Part shown: positions 26,560 to 49,006 of the stretch, piece by piece
How positions within the stretch are numbered: the stretch's first letter is position 1
How the letters are laid out: each line of letters starts with the position of its first letter
Source of the DNA: Candidatus Bathyarchaeia archaeon
GTDB lineage: Archaea; Thermoproteota; Bathyarchaeia; Bathyarchaeales; Bathycorpusculaceae
NCBI GenBank assembly: GCA_050012255.1
Contig: JBEKHN010000001.1
Coordinates: forward strand, 224,001-288,000
Direction of reading: 5' to 3'
DNA: 64,000 bases
The notes under the pieces: model-generated
Database searches by the model: none
The model's input: the letters and a program-made list of their open reading frames with translations, nothing else
Told to the model about the DNA's origin: nothing
Made by a program: the position numbers and the translations under genes

Positions 26560-27194
26560 GGTTCTGTTGACTCTTAGGAGCTAAGTGTTGAAAAGGGCTC
26601 TGGTAACAACTTGATCACATTATCTACTCTTGGTATTCGTATTCAATGAAAACAGTCAAAAAATGGGTGAAACTGCCGTTGTCCTATGATTTTAAATACA
26701 AGTTATGCCAAACATCCCAAAATACAACTATAAGGGAGGTGGCTTGAGTGGCTAGATTTTTCAACTTGTGGCGCGTGAATCCGTCGGCACCATGGCCTAC
26801 AGACCCTTCTAAGCTCTTAGAACTCCACGAAATGATATGGGCAACCATGGATGGACTGATAAAGAAGGGCGAGATTGAAGAGTGGGGGATTTTCCCAGAT
26901 GCGCACGTTGGATACGCAATCGGCAAAGGGGAAACTGTAGATGTCTATAGAAACGTGAGCATGTTCTATCCTTACTTTGTCTCTGAGGTACATGAGATCA
27001 TATCATACGAGAAAAACAAAGAAATTATAAGAACAGTTCTAAAAGCTCGAATCGCAGCAATGAAGAAGTAAGCCTTCATCCCCTTAGATCATATTCTTCT
27101 TTTTTCATAGCAAGTCTTTATTCTTCCATTTTGAGATGTGCTAGTAATTCAGGAAAATCTTCCATCATTCAAGCCCCGAAGAGTTAACAGAACC
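26560..27194. mobile_element. Non-autonomous IS6-type cassette with one passenger gene
   Basis: Left GGTTCTGTTGACTCTTAGGAGC and right GCCCCGAAGAGTTAACAGAACC closely match the TIRs at 41763 and 48332. Confidence 0.8.
26748..27071 (+). CDS. Hypothetical small alpha/beta protein (DUF3303-like), passenger gene
   Basis: GGAGGTGG SD; GEIEEWGIFPD..GYAI pattern; T-rich terminator-like tail. Confidence 0.7.
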   Translation: MARFFNLWRVNPSAPWPTDPSKLLELHEMIWATMDGLIKKGEIEEWGIFPDAHVGYAIGKGETVDVYRNVSMFYPYFVSEVHEIISYEKNKEIIRTVLKARIAAMKK

Positions 27195-40431: not shown

Positions 40432-41019
40432 TTACCCCTGCTGAGCTTTCCTGATCGCAAGCTCGACTGGAAACACTCGCAATTTCTTGCCGTCCACTGG
40501 AATTTCGCGTTCATCAGGGTATCCGCGCCTTTCACGCTTCAGAAAAGCAAGCTTGACGTCCAAGCCGCCTCCGTACCCACCCAGTGTGAAGTCCGCTCTT
40601 ACAACTCGATGGCACGGGCAGACCGGTGCGAAGGGGTTTGAAGCCATGATCTGCCCAACAGCTCTTGGCCCTCCTCCGACGGCTTTGGCAACTTCACCGT
40701 ACGTGGTTACGTAACCCAGCGGTACCTTGCAAACGGTTTCGATTACCTTCTTAGTGTACTTTGGCAGATGCTCCTCGGCCAGGGAGAAGCTGTGAGAAAC
40801 GTCTTTTCCATCGTAAATCTCCTTCAACGCTTCGATCACAGAGTGGGCAAACTCGGTTTTCTTTGGGTTTTCCGCAGAAACATGAAAGGGGACACTTTCT
40901 CTCAATCCTCGCAAAGCATTGTTCTGAGTTGAGGCAAACGTTGTCGCGTAGACAGATTCTCCTTCAAAGGCGACTCCAAACCAGACATTTCCGACCTTCT
41001 CGATGTAAACGCTTATCAT
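40432..41019 (-). CDS. ogt: Methylated-DNA--protein-cysteine methyltransferase
   Basis: TTYG, RAVG, PCHRVV and GGYGGG motifs. Confidence 0.93.
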   Translation of the reverse strand: MISVYIEKVGNVWFGVAFEGESVYATTFASTQNNALRGLRESVPFHVSAENPKKTEFAHSVIEALKEIYDGKDVSHSFSLAEEHLPKYTKKVIETVCKVPLGYVTTYGEVAKAVGGGPRAVGQIMASNPFAPVCPCHRVVRADFTLGGYGGGLDVKLAFLKRERRGYPDEREIPVDGKKLRVFPVELAIRKAQQG

Positions 41020-41534
41020 GCTTGCTTCCTCTCGTAGAACTATCGCCGCATCAAGTTTTATTTCTTGCTCCTCTTGTTCACTCTTGCACATACGCGCTCT
41101 ATTAAGAAAACCGCGCACACACTTGCCGAGGCATCGTCATCCGCGCGCGGAAGGCAGATTAGGAATGGCATTATTCATGCGGACAAATTTTTCAGCGGTA
41201 AAAAACGACGGGGTAGAGGAACGTTGCGGGCTCGTGTACCTTACAACGTTCTGATGCACGGTATTTCTTAGCTCCTAGCGGTAGGCTCTTTTTGGTTGCT
41301 CACACGAAAAAAGAATTATTTTCTTGTCATTCAGCGCCGGCTTCTATGGTCACCGCAAACACGAACCCTACAATGGTCTCAGCAAAAAGGGGCCCCAGCT
41401 CTCGTAGTAAACGAGAAGAGAAAAAACAGGGATCGTGCGGGAGAAGTCTCCAGCGCAGAACCACAAATCGTAAACTCTTTTATGGCACAACCCTACATAT
41501 AATCTAATAGTCAGCCTCAAGAACAGGGAAGACA

Positions 41535-41699
41535 ATGGCAGAAACAGTTACGAAGAAAGATTGGATACTATTTTTGCTTACCATTGCTTTCGTCATTTTT
41601 CTTGCCATTGCAATCTTCATCATATTGACTGGCCCAACTGGAAACCCGCCAGAAGGGCGGATGAGGCCATTGGTAACATTACTACGTACTTGGTTGTAG
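41535..41699 (+). CDS. Small single-TM peptide (54 aa)
   Basis: Manual translation MAETVTKKDWILFLLTIAFVIFLAIAIFIILTGPTGNPPEGRMRPLVTLLRTWL. Confidence 0.4.
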   Translation: MAETVTKKDWILFLLTIAFVIFLAIAIFIILTGPTGNPPEGRMRPLVTLLRTWL

Positions 41700-41875
41700 A
41701 CTTATCCGACGATTTTTTAAATGGAATCTAATCAGACGCAGACTTGACAGAACCCTTTATCAGGTTCTGTTAACTCTTAGGGTCTTAAAGAAGTTTGTTA
41801 ACTGTCGGGGCTTTTTATTAACTAAAAACCTTATTAATTAGGTGTTTCTATTCTGGCAAAATCAGTGGTAAATGA

Positions 41876-42055
41876 ATGAACTGCCCACGTTGCAACGCGG
41901 AGATTAACGTTAAGCATAAAAAGGAATGGAAATACCGTCAGGGTTACTATCTTGTGCGACAATATAAATGCCCAAAGTGCAGGAAACCATTTCGTACCTA
42001 TTTCCATGACAACAAGCTTTGTTTTACTATCCCTAAACCGAGCCAAAGATGTTAA
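41876..42055 (+). CDS. Small zinc-ribbon protein (59 aa, Cren7-like pattern)
   Basis: Manual translation MNCPRCNAEINVKHKKEWKYRQGYYLVRQYKCPKCRKPFRTYFHDNKLCFTIPKPSQRC; TATA-like CTTATTAA upstream. Confidence 0.7.
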   Translation: MNCPRCNAEINVKHKKEWKYRQGYYLVRQYKCPKCRKPFRTYFHDNKLCFTIPKPSQRC

Positions 42056-42081
42056 AAAGATAGACCGTACATTAAGACAAC

Positions 42082-45000
42082 ATGGCTAACAGCACCGATT
42101 TCTTCGAAAAAGCCCAAAGAGCTATCGAAAAATGCGAGCAAAAACGCGAGACGAAACTGGAAATAGAATTTGAGCATGTTCTCAAAAACTATTTTGAATG
42201 GCTAGGTTTCTCAAACATTGAAGGGCAATATGAACAAAAAGCAGGAAACATCTTTGTCGTTTCTAAGAAAAGACAGGATGCTACATATGGAAAAGTAATC
42301 ATAGAGTATGAGTCGGTCGGCAAACTCCTATCACATGCGGGAAAAGAACACGCACTAAATCAAATTAAAGATGACTATTTGGGTGCTTATCCTTCAGCGC
42401 AACGAGAAAAACTCGTTGGAATAGTCTTTGATGGCAAATTGATTATTTTTGTGCGTTGGATTGAAAGCGAGTGGGATTATGACGAAAGAGAGTTTACTAG
42501 GCAAAGTTTTGAGATGATGGTAAACTATCTTGTAGGTTTGTATAAGATTTCGTTCATTGAGTTACCCTCACAGTTTGGTTTCAATAAAGCAAAAACAAGA
42601 GAATCTTTGAAAACATTGTACTCAAAATCTGTCTGCAAGAATGAGAGGGCAAAGATGCTTTTTGACGAATGGAATTTGAGGTTTAGCTCGATATACGGCA
42701 ACTCTTTTAACAAGCAGAAAATTAAAGAACATTTCAAGGAATTTGCGAAACTAGTCGGTATAGAGGAAGCCGAAGAAAGCAGACTCATTTTTGCAATTCA
42801 TACATACTACGCTTTTATCGTTAAAATTGTCGCTTCTGAAGTAGCAAAAAACCTGTTTAATTATGCTACGGCTCAATCCCACATGAAAACCCTTTTGGAA
42901 TCGGAAAAGTTGGAAAAGGAACTAAAAGAGATAGAAGACGGGAAGTTCTTTCGGGATATTGGCATAGATAATTTTATAGAAGGAACTTTTCTTTCTTGGT
43001 ACTTAGATGTTTGGGATAAGGAAATAGAAGAGATCGCCAAAGACATAATTACACGCCTAGATTGGTTTGACTTCGCTGAGTTCATAACCAAACCAGAATA
43101 CGTTGTTGATTACTTGAAGAACTTTTACCAAGAAGTCTTTCCTAAACAGCTTAGACATGACCTGGGCGAGTTCTATACTCCAGATTGGTTAGCAAAATAT
43201 CTTGTTCGCCTTGCTGGTTTCGATGGCAATGTGAACACACGAGCACTCGATCCAGCATGTGGATCGGGAACATTCCTTGTGGCTATTATCAATAGGATTT
43301 TTGAAAAGTATAAAAAAGAACAACATAAGGAAAGACTAGTTGCGGATATTTCGAAAAACATAGTTGGCTTTGACATAAACCCAATAGCAGTCTTAACAGC
43401 AAGAACCAATTATCTAATAGCATTATCTCGCTTTAATTTGGTAAAAACACAAGTGACCATTCCAATATACCTCACCGATTCAATCGTTTTACCAGAACTT
43501 GAAAAACAGAAAAAATTAACAGACAAAGTAAACTTGTATAATATCAAAACAACAAAAGGGATTTTTCGCATACCCGCTGAAGCAAAGACTCGCATATCAG
43601 AAATCATGTATTTTCTAAAAAGCAATATTGACAAACAAATTGATGCAAAGCATACAAAAGAACAGTTAGAAAGCCAATTTGGGTACAACGACAAAGTGAT
43701 CTATCATCTATTAGAATTGTACGATAAGCTACTGGAGCTAAGCAACCAGAATCAAAACAAAATTTGGTGCGACATCATAATCAATCAGTTCTCCACTCTC
43801 TTCCAAGAACGATTTGATTTCGTAATTGGGAACCCTCCTTGGGTCAACTGGGAATTCTTGAACGACGAATACCAAAAACACATGATGGCAATCAATGATG
43901 AGTACGGTATGTACTTCACGAAAGGTTTAGAATCAAGATTGGGAAAAGTCAAGCGAGACATATCTGCCATATTCTTTTACGTGTGTTCGGATGTTTATTT
44001 GAAGAATCATGGTTCGATTGCTTTTCTCATAAAACCCATGTATCAAATTCCGTCTGGTAGAGGGTTCAGAAACTTCAACAGATTGCCTAAAGACGTGGAA
44101 ATTTCCAAACTCAAAAATCCGCTTAAGATTATTATTGTTGAAGATGTTAGCAAAGAAAACCCATTCGAGATTGGTAACGCAGTATCGCTGATCGTAGCGA
44201 AGAAAGGAGAAAAGACAGATTATCCTATAAAATACAGAAAGTGGGCTGGTAAGCGAACCCATGAGCTGGAAGATTATAAAGCAGACCCATCAGATGATAC
44301 TGATCCGCTCTCCACTTGGGCTATATACAAAGGCCAAAAACAGCTTAATGCTTCAGGAGAGTTTGACTACAAAATCAGGACAGGAGTTTATCATGGATTA
44401 AAAGAGCCATTTTTTGGCTTAGAATTGTTGATAGATAAGGGAACTCTTGTCCAGATACGAAACTGTGAAAGCAAAGTGAAAGACCTCGAAAAGGATAGAA
44501 TTTATCCATTGATTATGTCACGCCATATCAACAGATGGAAATTGGGGGATGTCAACGGAGAAAAATACACTTACTGTATTCTTCCACAGTCGCGCCTAGG
44601 TGAGAATAACGAAAATGAAATGAAAATGGATACGCCAAATACTTATGAATGGTTAGCCGATTTCAAAGAGAAACTATTAGATAGAAAGATTTTCTTGAAA
44701 ATGTTTCACAAGGGCAAAAACCCATTTTACTCGATCTATGATCTAAATGATTGGGATTCAAAATACAAAGTTGTTTGGAAGAACATGGGCTTCTATCCTG
44801 ATTTCTTAGTTGTGTCTTCTGTGGATGATAAAAAATTAGGCAAGAAACTAGTTCTTCCCGAACATGTCGTTTCGTATATTCCTCTGAACACTAGAAAAGA
44901 AGCTCATTACGTGTGTGCTATTCTCAATTCGTCTGTTGTCAGAACAAACCTTAGCACTTTATCTTCTGGTGGGAAATCTGGTCTATCCGCTTCGATTGTT

Positions 45001-45198
45001 GGAAAAGTACGACTAGACAAGTTCAACCCAAAAATCCCTTTACATGAAACGCTTGCGCTATTATCGATGTCAGCCCATTCATTGGCTGAACAAGATGATA
45101 CTGAGAGACTCAAGAAAGTTGAAAAGAGAATAGATGATTTTGTTGAGGCATTTTATAAGAACAAACGACAAAAAAACAGCCTCTTGAACAACCAATAA
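42082..45198 (+). CDS. Type IIG-like fused restriction endonuclease / N6-adenine methyltransferase
   Basis: GEFYTP, DPACGSGTFL, GFDINP and NPPW motifs; N-terminal QD...IIEYE nuclease-like motif; C-terminal TRD; AT-rich. Confidence 0.88.
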   Translation: MANSTDFFEKAQRAIEKCEQKRETKLEIEFEHVLKNYFEWLGFSNIEGQYEQKAGNIFVVSKKRQDATYGKVIIEYESVGKLLSHAGKEHALNQIKDDYLGAYPSAQREKLVGIVFDGKLIIFVRWIESEWDYDEREFTRQSFEMMVNYLVGLYKISFIELPSQFGFNKAKTRESLKTLYSKSVCKNERAKMLFDEWNLRFSSIYGNSFNKQKIKEHFKEFAKLVGIEEAEESRLIFAIHTYYAFIVKIVASEVAKNLFNYATAQSHMKTLLESEKLEKELKEIEDGKFFRDIGIDNFIEGTFLSWYLDVWDKEIEEIAKDIITRLDWFDFAEFITKPEYVVDYLKNFYQEVFPKQLRHDLGEFYTPDWLAKYLVRLAGFDGNVNTRALDPACGSGTFLVAIINRIFEKYKKEQHKERLVADISKNIVGFDINPIAVLTARTNYLIALSRFNLVKTQVTIPIYLTDSIVLPELEKQKKLTDKVNLYNIKTTKGIFRIPAEAKTRISEIMYFLKSNIDKQIDAKHTKEQLESQFGYNDKVIYHLLELYDKLLELSNQNQNKIWCDIIINQFSTLFQERFDFVIGNPPWVNWEFLNDEYQKHMMAINDEYGMYFTKGLESRLGKVKRDISAIFFYVCSDVYLKNHGSIAFLIKPMYQIPSGRGFRNFNRLPKDVEISKLKNPLKIIIVEDVSKENPFEIGNAVSLIVAKKGEKTDYPIKYRKWAGKRTHELEDYKADPSDDTDPLSTWAIYKGQKQLNASGEFDYKIRTGVYHGLKEPFFGLELLIDKGTLVQIRNCESKVKDLEKDRIYPLIMSRHINRWKLGDVNGEKYTYCILPQSRLGENNENEMKMDTPNTYEWLADFKEKLLDRKIFLKMFHKGKNPFYSIYDLNDWDSKYKVVWKNMGFYPDFLVVSSVDDKKLGKKLVLPEHVVSYIPLNTRKEAHYVCAILNSSVVRTNLSTLSSGGKSGLSASIVGKVRLDKFNPKIPLHETLALLSMSAHSLAEQDDTERLKKVEKRIDDFVEAFYKNKRQKNSLLNNQ

Positions 45199-45304
45199 TT
45201 TCCCCGATAAATGCCAAGACTTGGCTCTCCAACTTAAATGACAACTTGGCATTATCTTGTTTGATAACTTGTATGTTGAAATTTCAAAAATCAAAGAAAC
45301 TAAC

Positions 45305-46477
45305 TTAGAGAGGTTTTTGGACTTTTGTTGCTTTCTTGATTAGTGACTTCCAATTCTCAGGTGTTGAACTATCAGCAATTTTCGCTTGTTGTGCAGGAGT
45401 TTTTCCTCCTAGTGCTATGTGAGGTCTCATGAAGTTGTAGTAGATTCTCAGGCCATCCATCATTGTCTGTGCTGTCTCTTCATCATCGAGCCCGCGCATA
45501 ACCTTGTTTCTCTGCCTAATCGTTCCGTGAAGTCTTTCAATCATGTTGTTGTTTGAACGGTCTCTGATGTTGGGTATTCTAACGTGTTCTGTCCTCGGTG
45601 CTTTCATTGTGTAGAACTCTTTCGCTATCGCATCCTGATAGGATCTTAATCCATCTGTCACTATTGCCATTGGTCTGGTCTTTGAAAGGCTTGAGGCTTG
45701 AGCTAGAACTTGTCTTGCGTCTGCAATTTCTCTTTTCTCCGTTATTTGAGAGGCAAGCCAGAATCGGCTTTCGTTGTCGATTACGTTCCAAGCCCATCTC
45801 AGGTTTTCGTGATTGTCTAAGTCTTTTATGTTCAATGTCATTTCATCGCTATGCCAAATTCCGCTCACTTTTGGAACTAGCTGATCGCAATATTTCTTCA
45901 TCATGGAAACGTACTTTCTTATCCACTTGTAAATCGCTACATGGCTAACCTCTACCCCGTAGAACTGCTTTATGTGGTCAACTATCGCTCTCATGCTGAT
46001 TCCTTTGAAGTAAAGGTCAAGGGCTACGGTGACAGTTTCAGGAGTAGCCTTCATTCTCTCAAACCCTTCGTCAATAATGAATTTTCTCTTACAGTCTTTG
46101 CAGAAAAACCGTTGAACCTTTCCATTCTGAGTGTTTCGGTATCCTCTCTTCACGATATTTTGAGAGCCACAGAATTTACAAACCTGTTCTGGTGATTCTA
46201 CTTCTTTGCATAGGTTCTCACCCTCTTTCTCAAGAGGAAATGCAACCTGCTCATTTAACCTGATCTGTTGAACCGCATGAATGTGCTTGCATGCTACATG
46301 ATTAAGGACAAAATCGGGGCATTCGCATTTCCACTCAAGTCCCTCTCTTACCACGATGTAGTGTTTGCCTTCTTCAGTCTGAGACCAAACTCGATAAGTT
46401 GAATCGCTTATCTTGTCAACCTTACCGTGAGCCAGAAGAGAGTACGCACGGAGTTTGCGTGTGTTTGAGGTTTTCAT
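45305..46477 (-). CDS. IS6-family DDE transposase with N-terminal SWIM and IS1-like zinc fingers
   Basis: CECPDF...CKHIHA, CKFC...CKDC, HTH, WHSDEM / VTDG / NNNMIERLH triad, YYNFMRPH..LGGKTPA; frame intact. Confidence 0.92.
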   Translation of the reverse strand: MKTSNTRKLRAYSLLAHGKVDKISDSTYRVWSQTEEGKHYIVVREGLEWKCECPDFVLNHVACKHIHAVQQIRLNEQVAFPLEKEGENLCKEVESPEQVCKFCGSQNIVKRGYRNTQNGKVQRFFCKDCKRKFIIDEGFERMKATPETVTVALDLYFKGISMRAIVDHIKQFYGVEVSHVAIYKWIRKYVSMMKKYCDQLVPKVSGIWHSDEMTLNIKDLDNHENLRWAWNVIDNESRFWLASQITEKREIADARQVLAQASSLSKTRPMAIVTDGLRSYQDAIAKEFYTMKAPRTEHVRIPNIRDRSNNNMIERLHGTIRQRNKVMRGLDDEETAQTMMDGLRIYYNFMRPHIALGGKTPAQQAKIADSSTPENWKSLIKKATKVQKPL

Positions 46478-46600
46478 CGGTCTACACCTTGGTATATACT
46501 AATGTACACACAGGTATATAAGAGTTTCCACACCTATGTTTAGACCGTAGTATAAACCTTAAATACATGGTTCGTCTAAGTATATGCAGAGGTGTAGAAA

Positions 46601-46774
46601 TTGGCAGGTCAAGTTAAAACAAAGATCAACAAAGTCGGGTCACGACACACTATCTACCTCAAAACGGACCTAATCAACGATAGCAATTTCCCCTTCCATG
46701 TGGGTGAATCACTCATAGTGAGAATAGAAGGCGATAAACTGATCATTGAAAAAGAAAGCAAGAACGTGCGTTAA
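46601..46774 (+). CDS. AbrB/MazE-fold small DNA-binding protein (57 aa), divergent from the transposase
   Basis: GAGGTG SD; manual translation MAGQVKTKINKVGSRHTIYLKTDLINDSNFPFHVGESLIVRIEGDKLIIEKESKNVR. Confidence 0.75.
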   Translation: MAGQVKTKINKVGSRHTIYLKTDLINDSNFPFHVGESLIVRIEGDKLIIEKESKNVR

Positions 46775-46793
46775 GGGAATATAAGCAAAAAAG

Positions 46794-47741
46794 CTAACCT
46801 AGAGGTGGAGTATGCTCTAGACCTGCTGCTATATTTTGTCTAACATCATTCGCTTTAGGTAGTCTTTTGAAAGCTGGTTTGAACACGTTCTCGTAGACTT
46901 TCTGATACAGTTGCTCAAAGGATTTAGATTCCTTCGCGAAGTAGGTTACGCTTTGACCAATTTCCTCTTCTATTAATGTCTCTCTTAATGCTTCTTCAAA
47001 TCTCTGAGCCACTATTTTGTTATCCGCTAGCGTGCCAACGAAGAAACTTTGTCTTAATGGTCCAAGTTTTTCACGTACATCTGCTTCGCCTTGTTCGCTG
47101 AGAGCTGAATAGAAAAAGTCATATAGATACCGTCTGCTAGAGCAATGGATACCTCTGATGTTCTTGACCACTCCTTTTTCAGGGATTCCGACGGTGCAAA
47201 ATACTTCATGCGGAATAACGCTCTGTCCTTTTGCTGCATTATTCAGGGTTCTGATGATTTCTTTGAATATGCCTTTTGCATCGTCCCGTTTCCAAATTGT
47301 ATCTACCAAATCTTCTGTTTCGCCCTTTCCATAGGCATCGATCTCTATGTCGCGGTAGACCTCACGCCAGCTTGGACTATTGTTGATAGAGAAGAAACCT
47401 GAAAGCCGATCGCCATCTAAGTCCCAATAGCCTTCTATTCTCACAACTGTTGAAACTAGCAGCTCAAATGGAAAGAACTTGCTATCAGAGAATTGCTGTT
47501 TCAGCTTAGCCATATCTCGGAAAAATTCTGAGACTTTCACTTCTGGAAACAACCGTTCTCCCCCTAAAGCCTCTGAAGGTCGATTGTGCCAGACACTTAT
47601 CCCTTGAGGTTCGAACACATGCCCATTGACAAAGGAAAGTGCTATTTCTGTTGCATAGTGGAGCCGATTTAAAGCTACGTCTCTGAAGGTAGTTGCTTCA
47701 GGTCTTTTCAGAGTTATGTATATGCCCATTTCACCGATCAC
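46794..47741 (-). CDS. Hypothetical protein (transposon cargo)
   Basis: 315-aa ORF overlapping the upstream gene; no recognised motif. Confidence 0.75.
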   Translation of the reverse strand: MIGEMGIYITLKRPEATTFRDVALNRLHYATEIALSFVNGHVFEPQGISVWHNRPSEALGGERLFPEVKVSEFFRDMAKLKQQFSDSKFFPFELLVSTVVRIEGYWDLDGDRLSGFFSINNSPSWREVYRDIEIDAYGKGETEDLVDTIWKRDDAKGIFKEIIRTLNNAAKGQSVIPHEVFCTVGIPEKGVVKNIRGIHCSSRRYLYDFFYSALSEQGEADVREKLGPLRQSFFVGTLADNKIVAQRFEEALRETLIEEEIGQSVTYFAKESKSFEQLYQKVYENVFKPAFKRLPKANDVRQNIAAGLEHTPPLG

Positions 47742-48192
47742 CCGAAAGATTCTTATACATACGATACATGTTATCCACTTGTTCCTCGTAAAAAATCAGT
47801 AACTCCCAAGAAAACGGTGCAACCTTAACCCGATAAGGTTCATCATTTCTGCTTGGGTCAACTAGTCTATGTGTTCTAAGTTCTTGCTTAAAAAACCTAC
47901 TCTCGGTTCTGCTTAACCCGTCGGAGACAACTATGAGGAAATCCACTGGATTTTTGGGAACTAAGAGATGAGCTGAGGAGTCTAGTTGCTCTACTGCTTT
48001 GTGCATGTTTGACCTTTTGAACTCGATAATGGCACGCTTGCCATTGCTGTAGATGGTATATCTATCGGAAATTTTGCACGGATGTGCTGGGTCGCCCTTT
48101 GAGATCCCAAGTTCATGTTGGGCACTAGGGTCATCAAGATCGTACTCCTTGACGGGTTTCGCAGTGTCAATAAGAGGAGTTCTCTTCCCCAT
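47731..48192 (-). CDS. Putative PD-(D/E)xK nuclease-fold protein (transposon cargo)
   Basis: ISD-x11-IIEFK...KAVEQL pattern. Confidence 0.6.
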   Translation of the reverse strand: MGKRTPLIDTAKPVKEYDLDDPSAQHELGISKGDPAHPCKISDRYTIYSNGKRAIIEFKRSNMHKAVEQLDSSAHLLVPKNPVDFLIVVSDGLSRTESRFFKQELRTHRLVDPSRNDEPYRVKVAPFSWELLIFYEEQVDNMYRMYKNLSGDR

Positions 48193-48388
48193 TTTGAAAA
48201 CAGAACCTCGACGGTTCTTGTGGGTTGAACTTCTATTTAGGGTTTAAGACAAAACAAGAAACTTGCTAAAAGCCCCTCTGGTTAACATGGATAAACATTT
48301 ATCCATAAAAGACCCGAAGAGTTAACAGAACCCTTTATCATTAAGTTTAATAGTTTGTCCGTGCATAAAACGGGAAAGGTGTTGTCAT

Positions 48389-49006
48389 ATGGAAAAGCAA
48401 GCACAGAATGGTTACATGTTTATTCCAGGGGCCACAACTGTGGGCGTAATCTTCAAAGATGGTGCTATTCTGGCCTCTGAGAAGCGGGTTTCATATGGTT
48501 ATCTGATTGTGAGCAAGACAGGGAAGAAGGTTTTCAGAATCACGGACCACATAGGCGCAGCTTGTGCTGGACTGGTTTCAGATATGCAGGTTCTCATCAG
48601 AGAAGTCGAAGCCTACGGAAACCTGTTTAACCTGGATGTTGGCCGACCCATATCGGTCAGATCGGTCGCTAAGCTCATGTCCAGTCTACTCTTCAGCCGT
48701 CGGTTGGCACCTCTCATCACGCAGACAATCGTCGGGGGAGTGGACAAAGAGGGTCCCTCACTGTACTCGCTAGACCCACTGGGTTCAGTGCTTCCTGACA
48801 GGTATACGGTCGTTGGGTCGGGAACAGAGATTGCGATGGGAGTCGTTGAGGAAGGATACAAGGACAACATGGGGATGGATGAAGCGAAGGACCTGGTCAT
48901 GAGGGCAATGAAGTCTGCCGTGAGCAGAGACGTAATGAGCGGAGACGGGATAGATTTTCTGATAATAACTAAGGATGGAATACGCGAAGAATCAATGAAA
49001 TTTTAG
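48389..49006 (+). CDS. psmB: Proteasome beta subunit
   Basis: Propeptide followed by TTVG; KKVF.I.DHIG, GSG and SRD..SGDG motifs. Confidence 0.95.
   Translation: MEKQAQNGYMFIPGATTVGVIFKDGAILASEKRVSYGYLIVSKTGKKVFRITDHIGAACAGLVSDMQVLIREVEAYGNLFNLDVGRPISVRSVAKLMSSLLFSRRLAPLITQTIVGGVDKEGPSLYSLDPLGSVLPDRYTVVGSGTEIAMGVVEEGYKDNMGMDEAKDLVMRAMKSAVSRDVMSGDGIDFLIITKDGIREESMKF

Follow-up and report, generated by a model that had tools for sequence, protein, structure and literature searches.

A single-transposase IS6-like unit transposon with a restriction-modification gene at the psmB promoter of a Bathyarchaeia archaeon

Introduction

Insertion sequences (IS) of the IS6 type are the textbook example of IS for which two-copy composites are the only way to move accessory genes. 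A locus directly upstream of psmB in a Candidatus Bathyarchaeia archaeon (assembly GCA_050012255.1, contig JBEKHN010000001.1, positions 224,001 to 288,000; these 64,000 nucleotides (nt) are referred to as the window, and coordinates without a prefix are counted from its first letter) raises the question of whether a relative of these elements carries cargo inside a single pair of ends and what determines where it lands. Positions 41763–48332 hold one transposase gene, a type IIG restriction-modification (R-M) gene and several smaller genes, and a preliminary description made from the sequence alone took this segment to be a complete cargo transposon of the IS6 type, recently inserted as one unit and serving as a vehicle for antivirus genes. 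The boundaries of the element, its target duplication, the empty site, the mobility of the same architecture elsewhere, the identities of the cargo genes and the target register are all demonstrated below.

The element and its empty site

The segment 41763–48332 is an intact, recently inserted unit transposon that moved as one piece. Its ends are 24-nt terminal inverted repeats at 41763–41786 (plus strand, GGTTCTGTTAACTCTTAGGGTCTT) and 48309–48332 (minus strand), which are complementary at 23 of 24 positions (96%, in a repeat-pair search of the window) and have in common the tip GGTTCTGTTAAC... with its initial GG and a CTGTT motif. Both are directly flanked by the 8-mer CTTTATCA (41755–41762 and 48333–48340, a direct repeat), which leaves a unit of 6,570 base pairs (bp); the repeats, the perfect duplication, the single DDE transposase gene and the length are all as first described. 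The match between the ends exceeds chance, and in the organism's own genome (2.35 Mb) the 24-mer is found eight times with up to three mismatches, compared with no occurrence of the reversed control. The direct repeat is longer than 8 nt, with 16 identical nt in 41747–41762 and 48325–48340 (26 nt at 88%), because a solo end of a related element abuts the left 8-mer. This solo end (41705–41754, minus strand), older debris of an IS6-like element outside the transposon, reads GGTTCTGTCAAGTCTGCGTC... leftwards from 41754 and was identified by eye through its resemblance to ends elsewhere in the genome. Both ends further contain a second copy of the motif TGTTAAC-N4/5-GGG(G/T)CTT, at 41796–41815 (plus strand, TGTTAAC..GGGGCTTTT) and 48268–48287 (minus strand; the two form a 20-nt pair at 80%), and the ends are therefore bipartite. 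This subterminal motif recurs in the ends of relatives, and the copy at 41796–41815 is probably a second transposase-binding site.

Contigs of four runs (X1 to X4, of which X1 is the probable source run) were compared with window 41300–48800. A 530-nt contig from X3, a peat metagenome of a different study from X1, consists of 41488–41746 (no mismatches) joined to 48325–48595 (two mismatches), with 6,578 nt skipped and 16 nt that fit both sides. The skipped length is that of the element plus one 8-mer, and the contig retains the solo end followed by a single CTTTATCA; it therefore represents the exact empty site in a near-identical strain from another metagenome, which bears out the recent insertion of a single unit. 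Contigs of the source run cover both junctions. In 14 contigs of X2, nine of X3 and nine of X4, all with differing flanks, similarity to the window is lost exactly at 41763, and further loose contig ends fall at 48332/48333 in X2 and X4; the runs X2–X4 have next to no cover over 42053–45315, where the R-M gene (42082–45198) is located. A weak joint in X4, whose shorter side is 23 nt, links 41451 to 48337 with eight other letters between, that is, a site free of all IS debris.

The same architecture is mobile elsewhere. The locus L038 contains an element of 5,818 bp with 62-nt repeats, the duplication CTGAAAAA and a transposase 82% identical to that of the window; its genes are homologues of the 153-residue (35% identity) and 315-residue (31%) proteins described below, a small divergent gene, the transposase gene and a 907-residue type IIG gene. 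The metagenomic locus L203 has the same ends as the window element, a length of 6,584 bp, the duplication CGGTTTTC, a SWIM transposase and a 953-residue type IIG gene; the two genes that occupy the module slot in this element were considered as homologues of the 315-residue protein, and this was ruled out (hhalign probability below 1%).

Genes inside the element

Six ORFs (open reading frames) lie between the ends, none of which encodes an integrase. The largest (42082–45198, plus strand) encodes a protein of 1,038 amino acids that matches the PADLOC model REase_MTase_IIG with an E-value of 1.3e-200, residues 6–1025 aligning with profile positions 10–1081 of 1100, and also matches Pfam Eco57I and N6_Mtase; the motifs DPACGSG and GNPPW are both present. 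The predicted product is a full-length, single-polypeptide type IIG R-M enzyme, so that the R-M label given at first is firm, and we infer that the enzyme is active. Directly upstream is a gene (41876–42055, plus strand) for a 59-residue protein with four cysteines (CPRC...CPKC), whose Zn-ribbon label rests on Pfam matches that are all below the cut-off.

The transposase gene (45305–46477, minus strand) encodes 390 amino acids with a SWIM Zn finger (20.7 bits, cut-off 19.6), a four-cysteine (C4) Zn ribbon and an IS6/IS240-type catalytic domain (Pfam DDE_Tnp_IS240, PF13610; 62.7 bits, cut-off 27); the NCBIfam search also reports an IS1/IS1595-type Zn-binding domain. An alignment with five full-length homologues shows no variation at D211, D275, E314 or either of the cysteine clusters, and a basic residue, R321, stands seven residues after E314. 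Divergent from this gene is one for a 57-residue AbrB/MazE-like protein (46601–46774, plus strand), whose match to Pfam MazE_antitoxin (PF04014) is below the threshold (13.9 bits, E 0.052; cut-off 24.7); equivalents of this gene in the loci L047 and L086 pass the family cut-off. The gene predicted at the outset is present, but probably not as cargo. Because the corresponding slot contains a small DNA-binding protein in most relatives, it is probably the core regulator of the element. The divergent intergenic region (46481–46598) is bracketed by a 20-nt inverted repeat (46481–46500 and 46579–46598, 85%) that might be an operator pair.

The remaining two genes form a module on the minus strand, for which L038 provides the diverged copies mentioned above. 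Gene 1 (47731–48192) encodes a 153-residue protein with a PD-(D/E)xK-like motif, D43...E57-x-K59, that is invariant in six aligned sequences of the family, and gene 2 (46794–47741) encodes a 315-residue protein with 18 homologues, none of them named. Neither protein has a match in Pfam, NCBIfam, PADLOC or PHROG, and profile searches of both against PDB sequences give nothing usable. Structure neighbours of the 153-residue protein in the Atlas are the PD-(D/E)xK families Mrr_cat_2, DUF91 and SduA_C, with template modelling (TM) scores of 0.50–0.55, a modelled likeness that may serve as a lead; for the 315-residue protein, the Atlas model has a pLDDT (predicted local distance difference test score) of 0.31 and the Atlas gave no neighbours. 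The guanine-plus-cytosine fraction is 0.48–0.52 in the flanks of the element, 0.37 in the R-M gene and 0.41–0.43 in the remainder.

The right end has, between its terminal and its subterminal repeat (48289–48306), a near-perfect palindrome, TGGATAAACATTTATCCA, that is partly kept in the right ends of relatives (G001, L123 and C5 of the own genome) and may be a binding site.

Relationship to the IS6 family

The transposase scores 122.7 bits against the NCBIfam IS6 model NF033587 (cut-off 125), shows 22.5% identity to IS257 (E 3e-6) and has its best annotated plasmid matches among Clostridium proteins labelled 'IS6 family transposase' (27–32% identity, E 1e-22 to 1e-27). In a quick tree of 48 transposases, the window protein pairs with that of L038 (support 100), IS257 is on a very long branch, and short forms with the Zn ribbon only are placed together with the clostridial IS6 transposases in a set of 26 rows (support 95) that includes no SWIM form. 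The marks of the IS6 family, according to excerpts of a review, are GG tips, a cTGTt motif and an 8-bp duplication (PMC7986276). Judging from the predicted catalytic domain, the GG...CTGTT tips and the 8-bp duplication, the window element belongs to the IS6 family only if this is taken in the wide sense of ISfinder, and the IS6 label of the preliminary description holds to that extent and fails in the strict sense. The simple IS6 organisation (0.7–0.9 kb, up to 1.76 kb, one ORF, no passengers) differs from the 6,570 bp and six ORFs found here. The strict IS26 family of Harmer and Hall (2019), characterised by a short protein of H-HTH plus DDE and by authors who in the excerpted text would leave archaeal and long forms out (PMC6807381), does not accommodate a 390-residue protein with two extra N-terminal Zn domains and such a low identity to IS257. 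A pseudo-compound transposon would have two copies; here one transposase gene is present, and the genome has no other full copy. The organisation is that of a unit transposon or tIS (an IS with passenger genes), in which one transposase gene and the passengers lie inside one inverted pair.

With IS6 elements in the wide sense (IS26, IS257, ISCpe7 and the archaeal clades) the window element shares the IS240/IS6-type DDE domain, the GG tips, CTGTT, the 8-bp duplication and the single transposase gene, and with the clostridial clades h and i an N-terminal zinc-finger extension, which the excerpted IS6 review describes only for these clades (PMC7986276). In contrast to IS6 elements, it measures 6.6 kb rather than about 0.8 kb, has five further genes inside one pair of ends, and possesses an extra SWIM finger, longer (24-nt) and bipartite ends and a promoter register; the single passenger-carrying member named in the excerpts of the review is ISDsp3 (PMC7986276). 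The pseudo-compound transposons of IS26 and IS257 likewise mobilise accessory genes with a related type of transposase, but they need two directly repeated IS copies that flank the cargo and move via cointegrate resolution, whereas the window element has one transposase and the cargo inside one inverted pair. Passenger-carrying IS are known in other families, e.g., IS481, ISL3 and ISNCY, and these tIS also combine a single transposase and passengers within one inverted-repeat pair and one duplication; their transposases are of other families, their cargo consists of transporters and regulators, as opposed to the mainly R-M cargo of the window family, and a promoter register is not reported in the excerpted text (PMC6305408).

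The wider family

A scan of one genome per species detected relatives in 187 stretches, the best 80 of which were analysed; by record title, these 80 represent Bathyarchaeia, Methanoperedens, Methanoregula, Nitrosopumilus and other Nitrososphaerota, and a few others. A repeat-and-duplication finder applied to 47 loci with full-length homologues delimited 22 elements from 21 loci. With the window included, there are 23 delimited elements of 2,272–7,161 bp, all with GG(T/C)(T/A)CTG... tips; homologous transposases sit in units of 2.3–7.2 kb, and the ends do not hug the transposase gene, as the preliminary description required. The duplications are perfect 8-mers of unrelated sequence in 14 elements, 9 bp long in three, 7/8 in one and absent in five.

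The cargo was surveyed with Pfam (107 ORFs) and PADLOC (66 of the 107). DNA methyltransferase (MTase) or R-M genes are present in 13 of the 23 elements, which supports the proposed role as a vehicle for antivirus genes, and complete type II pairs are found in L084 and L086; PADLOC candidate-defence matches occur in two more elements (L042 and L051), and other cargo includes PIN, SocA/Panacea, ParB-DUF488 and ClpP-like protease genes. Most elements have a gene for a small DNA-binding protein directly upstream of, and divergent from, the transposase gene: in six of them, this slot contains RHH_1, DUF7557 or MazE above the cut-off, and in eight others, including the window element, the matches (MazE, DUF7557, winged-helix or Zn-ribbon) are weaker. 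An exhaustive profile-free search gives 3,952 cluster representatives of the transposase at E≤1e-3, 1,660 at 1e-10 and 410 at 1e-30. The repeat at the ends of the window element, denoted A-type, occurs in at least 120 metagenome stretches, of which 80 loci were examined; at least 23 A-type end pairs of 485–6,584 bp were delimited, with an 8/8 duplication in at least 14 and a 7/8 duplication in at least two, and these are mostly short non-autonomous derivatives. The own genome contains such a derivative of 510 bp with A-type ends and the duplication GCATTTTC (C14:32583–33092).

Several individual elements deserve separate mention. The locus L042:7591–12339 encodes a ParB_N-DUF488 protein together with SocA/Panacea, with matches to PADLOC PDC-M19A/B; L084:6988–11156 carries an EcoRI-type methylase and a GmrSD/HNH-type restriction enzyme (PADLOC E 1e-128 and 1e-132), and L086:6994–11147 carries its type II R-M pair. 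Two IMG/VR contigs classed as viral, L122 and L123, encode transposases that are 85% and 88% identical to that of the window, with one A-type end each. Within the window, 26560–27194 is a 635-bp element resembling a miniature inverted-repeat transposable element (MITE), with A-type ends, a 107-residue ORF inside and no target duplication; one flank is in part the inverted complement of the other (TGCATATA.. and ..TATATGCA), and the sequence that the element shares with C14:32583–33092 is limited to about 40 nt at the left end and about 100 nt at the right. A search by shared 8-mers for partners of solo A-type ends elsewhere in the own genome (C5:28499, C6:16131, C20:7642 and others) gave no convincing candidate. 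The own genome also includes two elements of the short-form lineage, without SWIM, that have GGTACTGGTGCG.. ends: C21:713–3576 (2,864 bp, 9-bp duplication CTTTCAACA, transposase of about 295 residues) and C13:30574–32946 (2,373 bp, non-autonomous, 7/8 duplication); both show a TATA-like run 6–8 nt beyond the duplication. An inverted-repeat finder applied to 33 short-form loci returned few clean pairs.

Insertion at promoter-like motifs

Empty sites were rebuilt for 25 insertions defined by their duplications. At most of these sites, an A-rich stretch followed by a TATA-like box is found on one side only, 5–7 nt beyond the duplication, and the 14 clearest sites give the consensus (duplication ending in G) AAAagC TTATAAgt; the strict motif is on exactly one side at 16 of the 25 sites, and a relaxed rule raises this to 20. 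Among 90 distinct A-type ends, the hexamer TT[AT][AT]A[AT] begins at outward position 15 in 14 cases and at position 14 in four, compared with a total of seven for positions 17–53; over positions 13–16 it is observed in 19 ends, with 0.76 expected. An outward ORF of at least 50 codons that starts 35–110 nt away accompanies 11 of 15 ends with the motif vs 18 of 57 ends without it. In the window, the right duplication is followed by ttaag and the TATA-like TTTAATAG (48346–48353), the hexamer is at outward position 14, and the psmB start codon is at 48389, 49 nt after the duplication. This core promoter region (48341–48388, plus strand), the target landmark outside the element, is conserved in all nine genomes of the genus that have the locus, whether occupied or not. 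The comparison of sites shows that family members insert at a fixed distance from a predicted motif resembling the TFB recognition element (BRE) and TATA box, with the TATA-like hexamer starting 6–7 nt beyond the duplication.

A-type ends show no clear bias in how they are oriented with respect to the TATA side. The SWIM finger was considered as the source of the register and rejected, given that all five delimited short-form elements without SWIM show, by eye, a TATA-like run 6–8 nt beyond the duplication. The behaviour of the family has counterparts among unrelated elements: Ty3 integrates at TFIIIB-bound RNA polymerase III start sites and Tn7 at attTn7, both cases of safe-haven targeting, and TFIIIB contains TBP and a TFB homologue. 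As with Ty3 and Tn7, insertion in the window family is at a fixed distance from a conserved landmark and the gene is spared, although the enzymes are unrelated and the landmark of the window family may be read as DNA sequence.

The psmB locus and its stacks

The psmB locus could be located in nine of the 11 genomes of the genus. Five of these (G002, G003, G004, G005 and G008) are unoccupied, with ordinary DNA preceding the conserved promoter TTAAGTTTAATAG (TAAGGTTTAATAG in G003), so that the expected empty sites are found in more distant congeners as well. In the four occupied ones (G000, G001, G007 and G010), the promoter is preceded by (C/G)TTTATCA and an element tip, with three different kinds of element abutting (C/G)TTTATCA|TTAAG. 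As compared here, different elements share the psmB site as a hotspot, which is determined by the psmB promoter and is not a random target.

The fixed distance from the promoter accounts for the stacking of different family members on the same CTTTATCA in three sister genomes. In G001 and G007, tandem stacks of different members with CTTTATCA between each are found at psmB. The G001 stack consists of a 331-bp stretch that opens with a left-type end and is degenerate at the other, TGTTATCA (6/8), a 735-bp A-type derivative, CTTTATCA, a 4,259-bp element, CTTTATCA and psmB, and its left border (GGGAGAAGTCTCCACCT|CTTTATCA) matches the unoccupied sites of G005 and G002. The G007 stack comprises an A-like element that is truncated and inverted, an element of 4,147 bp carrying a PIN gene and, before psmB, an element of 7,161 bp that has an 890-residue MTase/Eco57I-type gene; the 7,161-bp element, present in G007 and G010, sits between psmB and an element common to G007 and G001. 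The window element is likewise promoter-proximal and is absent from the X3 strain.

Some further features of the neighbourhood can be noted. Between a conserved GGGAGAAGTCTCC motif and the window element there are about 300 bp of older IS debris (41452–41754), which include a truncated end-like stretch (..GCGCAGAACC, then GTAAACTCTTT..), a 54-residue hydrophobic ORF (41535–41699) and the solo end; this stretch is missing from the unoccupied sites of G005 and G002. To the left of the hotspot lies an ogt-like gene with a 6-O-methylguanine DNA methyltransferase domain (40432–41118, 228 residues), where the longest ORF of G007 has 281 residues (L025:7795–8640). In G007, a truncated A-like transposase ORF (180 residues, 79% identical over residues 211–387) overlaps the 5' region of the ogt-like gene, which suggests a deletion running from the stack into this neighbouring gene. 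Other tip-to-tip junctions with 8 nt between different IS6-like ends are found at C20:32679–32700 of the own genome, L118:1501–1522 and L119:824–845 (CGACGAGA, TTGAATAT and CTGCATAG, respectively); no outer copies of these 8-mers were found next to ends in the available stretches.

Mechanism and alternative explanations

The best explanation of the observations is that 41763–48332 is an autonomous and intact unit transposon from an IS6-like lineage of archaea, with R-M cargo and promoter-register insertion, and this reading is held with high confidence. A single transposase with the SWIM finger, Zn ribbon and DDE domain would recognise the bipartite ends, each a 24-bp terminal plus a subterminal repeat, and everything between them would move as one piece with the generation of an 8-bp target duplication. 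The movable load would consist of the type IIG R-M enzyme, the small Zn-ribbon gene and the module of the PD-(D/E)xK-like and 315-residue proteins, with the AbrB/MazE-like protein presumably regulating the element. Insertion would have placed the end of the duplication 5 nt upstream of the psmB TATA-like box. Each newcomer would again use the copy of the same 8-mer that lies nearest the promoter and push older elements upstream, which would produce head-to-tail stacks with the newest member nearest the promoter; as every newcomer would land at the same promoter distance, stacks could be explained without end-targeting. A broader proposal, which we put forward tentatively as a serious contender that falls somewhat short of probable, is that archaeal IS6-like transposons read the basal promoter to choose their target, either as BRE/TATA DNA or as the bend of the TBP/TFB complex; as each insertion would restore the target next to the intact promoter, promoters would then be self-renewing landing pads for defence-loaded transposons that are piled up in the order of arrival and exchanged between strains.

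Several points weigh against this interpretation. The empty-site contig of X3 has a depth of 5.95, and the evidence from the runs comes from assembled contigs rather than raw reads. The NCBIfam IS6 score is just under the cut-off; a clean pair of ends was missing at 26 of the 47 loci, and five of the 23 delimited elements have no duplication. Five of the 25 target sites have no TATA-like run even under the relaxed rule, and the promoter motifs are predictions from sequence and not mapped transcription starts. The 315-residue and 153-residue genes match no defence library, which leaves the label of defence payload unproven for both, and the own genome has one full transposase copy, that of the window, so that copy number gives no sign of activity. 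According to the IS26 family article, archaeal or long IS6-like forms in general lack experimental data (PMC6807381), and the proposed chemistry is therefore borrowed from IS26.

With respect to the transposition reaction, the transposase could, by analogy with IS26 and IS257 (PMC7986276), act by a copy-in route via a cointegrate that is resolved by host recombination; with the cargo enclosed by the ends, copying would extend to all 6.6 kb. The alternative is cut-and-paste movement, for which one can cite the lack of any sign of cointegrates in the data (which contigs cannot show), the N-terminal SWIM and Zn-ribbon domains and bipartite ends that differ from IS26, and a weak profile match of the transposase to the Mutator-family transposase structure 6xg8 (E 0.0024). 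The catalytic domain is nevertheless closest to the IS6/IS240 models, and the copies without duplication (five of the 23 elements, and 26560–27194) fit intramolecular replicative events, even though decay would also explain them; cut-and-paste is on balance unlikely, if the strongest of the alternatives.

Another explanation of the stacks is that newcomers target the ends of relatives already in place, by targeted conservative cointegration as in IS26 or in the manner of IS30, and not the promoter. The terminal GGTTCTG is common to the elements, and a search for CAGAACC-N(0–30)-GGTTCTG in 401 genomes of the order (forward strand) shows an excess of junctions with a spacer of exactly 8 nt, 13 of the 75 matches listed (counted by hand, out of 103 forward matches), no other spacer exceeding five; four of the 13 are at the psmB hotspot and nine elsewhere with other 8-mers. 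However, the TATA register is the same at isolated insertions, where no resident element is nearby. Promoter targeting alone predicts the order X-E1-X-E2-X-promoter. The stacked ends differ here, and it is the intact element that sits closest to the promoter in the window, L049 and L047; end-targeting is improbable as the source of the stacks.

A further possibility is survivorship, i.e., random insertion with persistence of only those copies that are harmless because they lie just upstream of core promoters. Insertions that spare the BRE/TATA motif and the gene are indeed expected to be tolerated, and all the data are standing insertions, none of them fresh. Selection, however, would permit any intergenic position upstream of the promoter, whereas the peak is only 1–2 nt wide (18 of the 90 ends at positions 14–15 vs the seven noted for positions 17–53), and we regard this explanation as quite improbable, even more so than end-targeting. 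Finally, the view that the 6.57-kb segment is resident or island DNA that happens to be flanked by two solo ends or MITEs, or is an integrase-type island bounded by 16-bp attachment (att) repeats, can draw on the solo ends and MITE-like copies in the genome and on the 16-nt direct repeat, but is already contradicted by the empty-site contig, which removes exactly 6,570 + 8 nt, by the lack of an integrase, by the origin of the extra 8 nt in the tip of the neighbouring solo end and by L038 and L203, which repeat the architecture with other 8-bp duplications, and can hardly be maintained.

Implications

In a full-text literature search (supplementary tables, e.g., a thaumarchaeal IS table, lie outside it), no description was found of SWIM-bearing IS6-like cargo transposons or of insertion in register with archaeal promoters. 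The excerpts of a survey of thaumarchaeal mobile elements describe IS-like transposons with one or two genes (PMC6563490), and those of a census of archaeal defence systems contain no mention of carriage by transposons (PMC12988326). Three habits of the family are absent from the literature searched, namely R-M-dominated internal cargo, the small divergent regulator gene, and fixed-distance insertion at BRE/TATA-like motifs that makes stacks.

The findings indicate that a sizeable archaeal branch (the 410 cluster representatives at E≤1e-30) moves accessory genes as single-copy unit transposons. The patchy spread of R-M systems among uncultured archaea thereby gains a concrete vehicle, one that is invisible to gene-by-gene annotation. 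The single-nucleotide register relative to BRE/TATA-like motifs offers a testable model of target choice by archaeal transposons, and the register rule allows insertion hotspots to be found and the order of arrival in stacks to be read. The bipartite ends together with one transposase would be a compact candidate tool in archaeal genetics, for insertion close to promoters. If the promoter is indeed read via the TBP/TFB bend, Ty3 integration at TFIIIB would have an archaeal equivalent.

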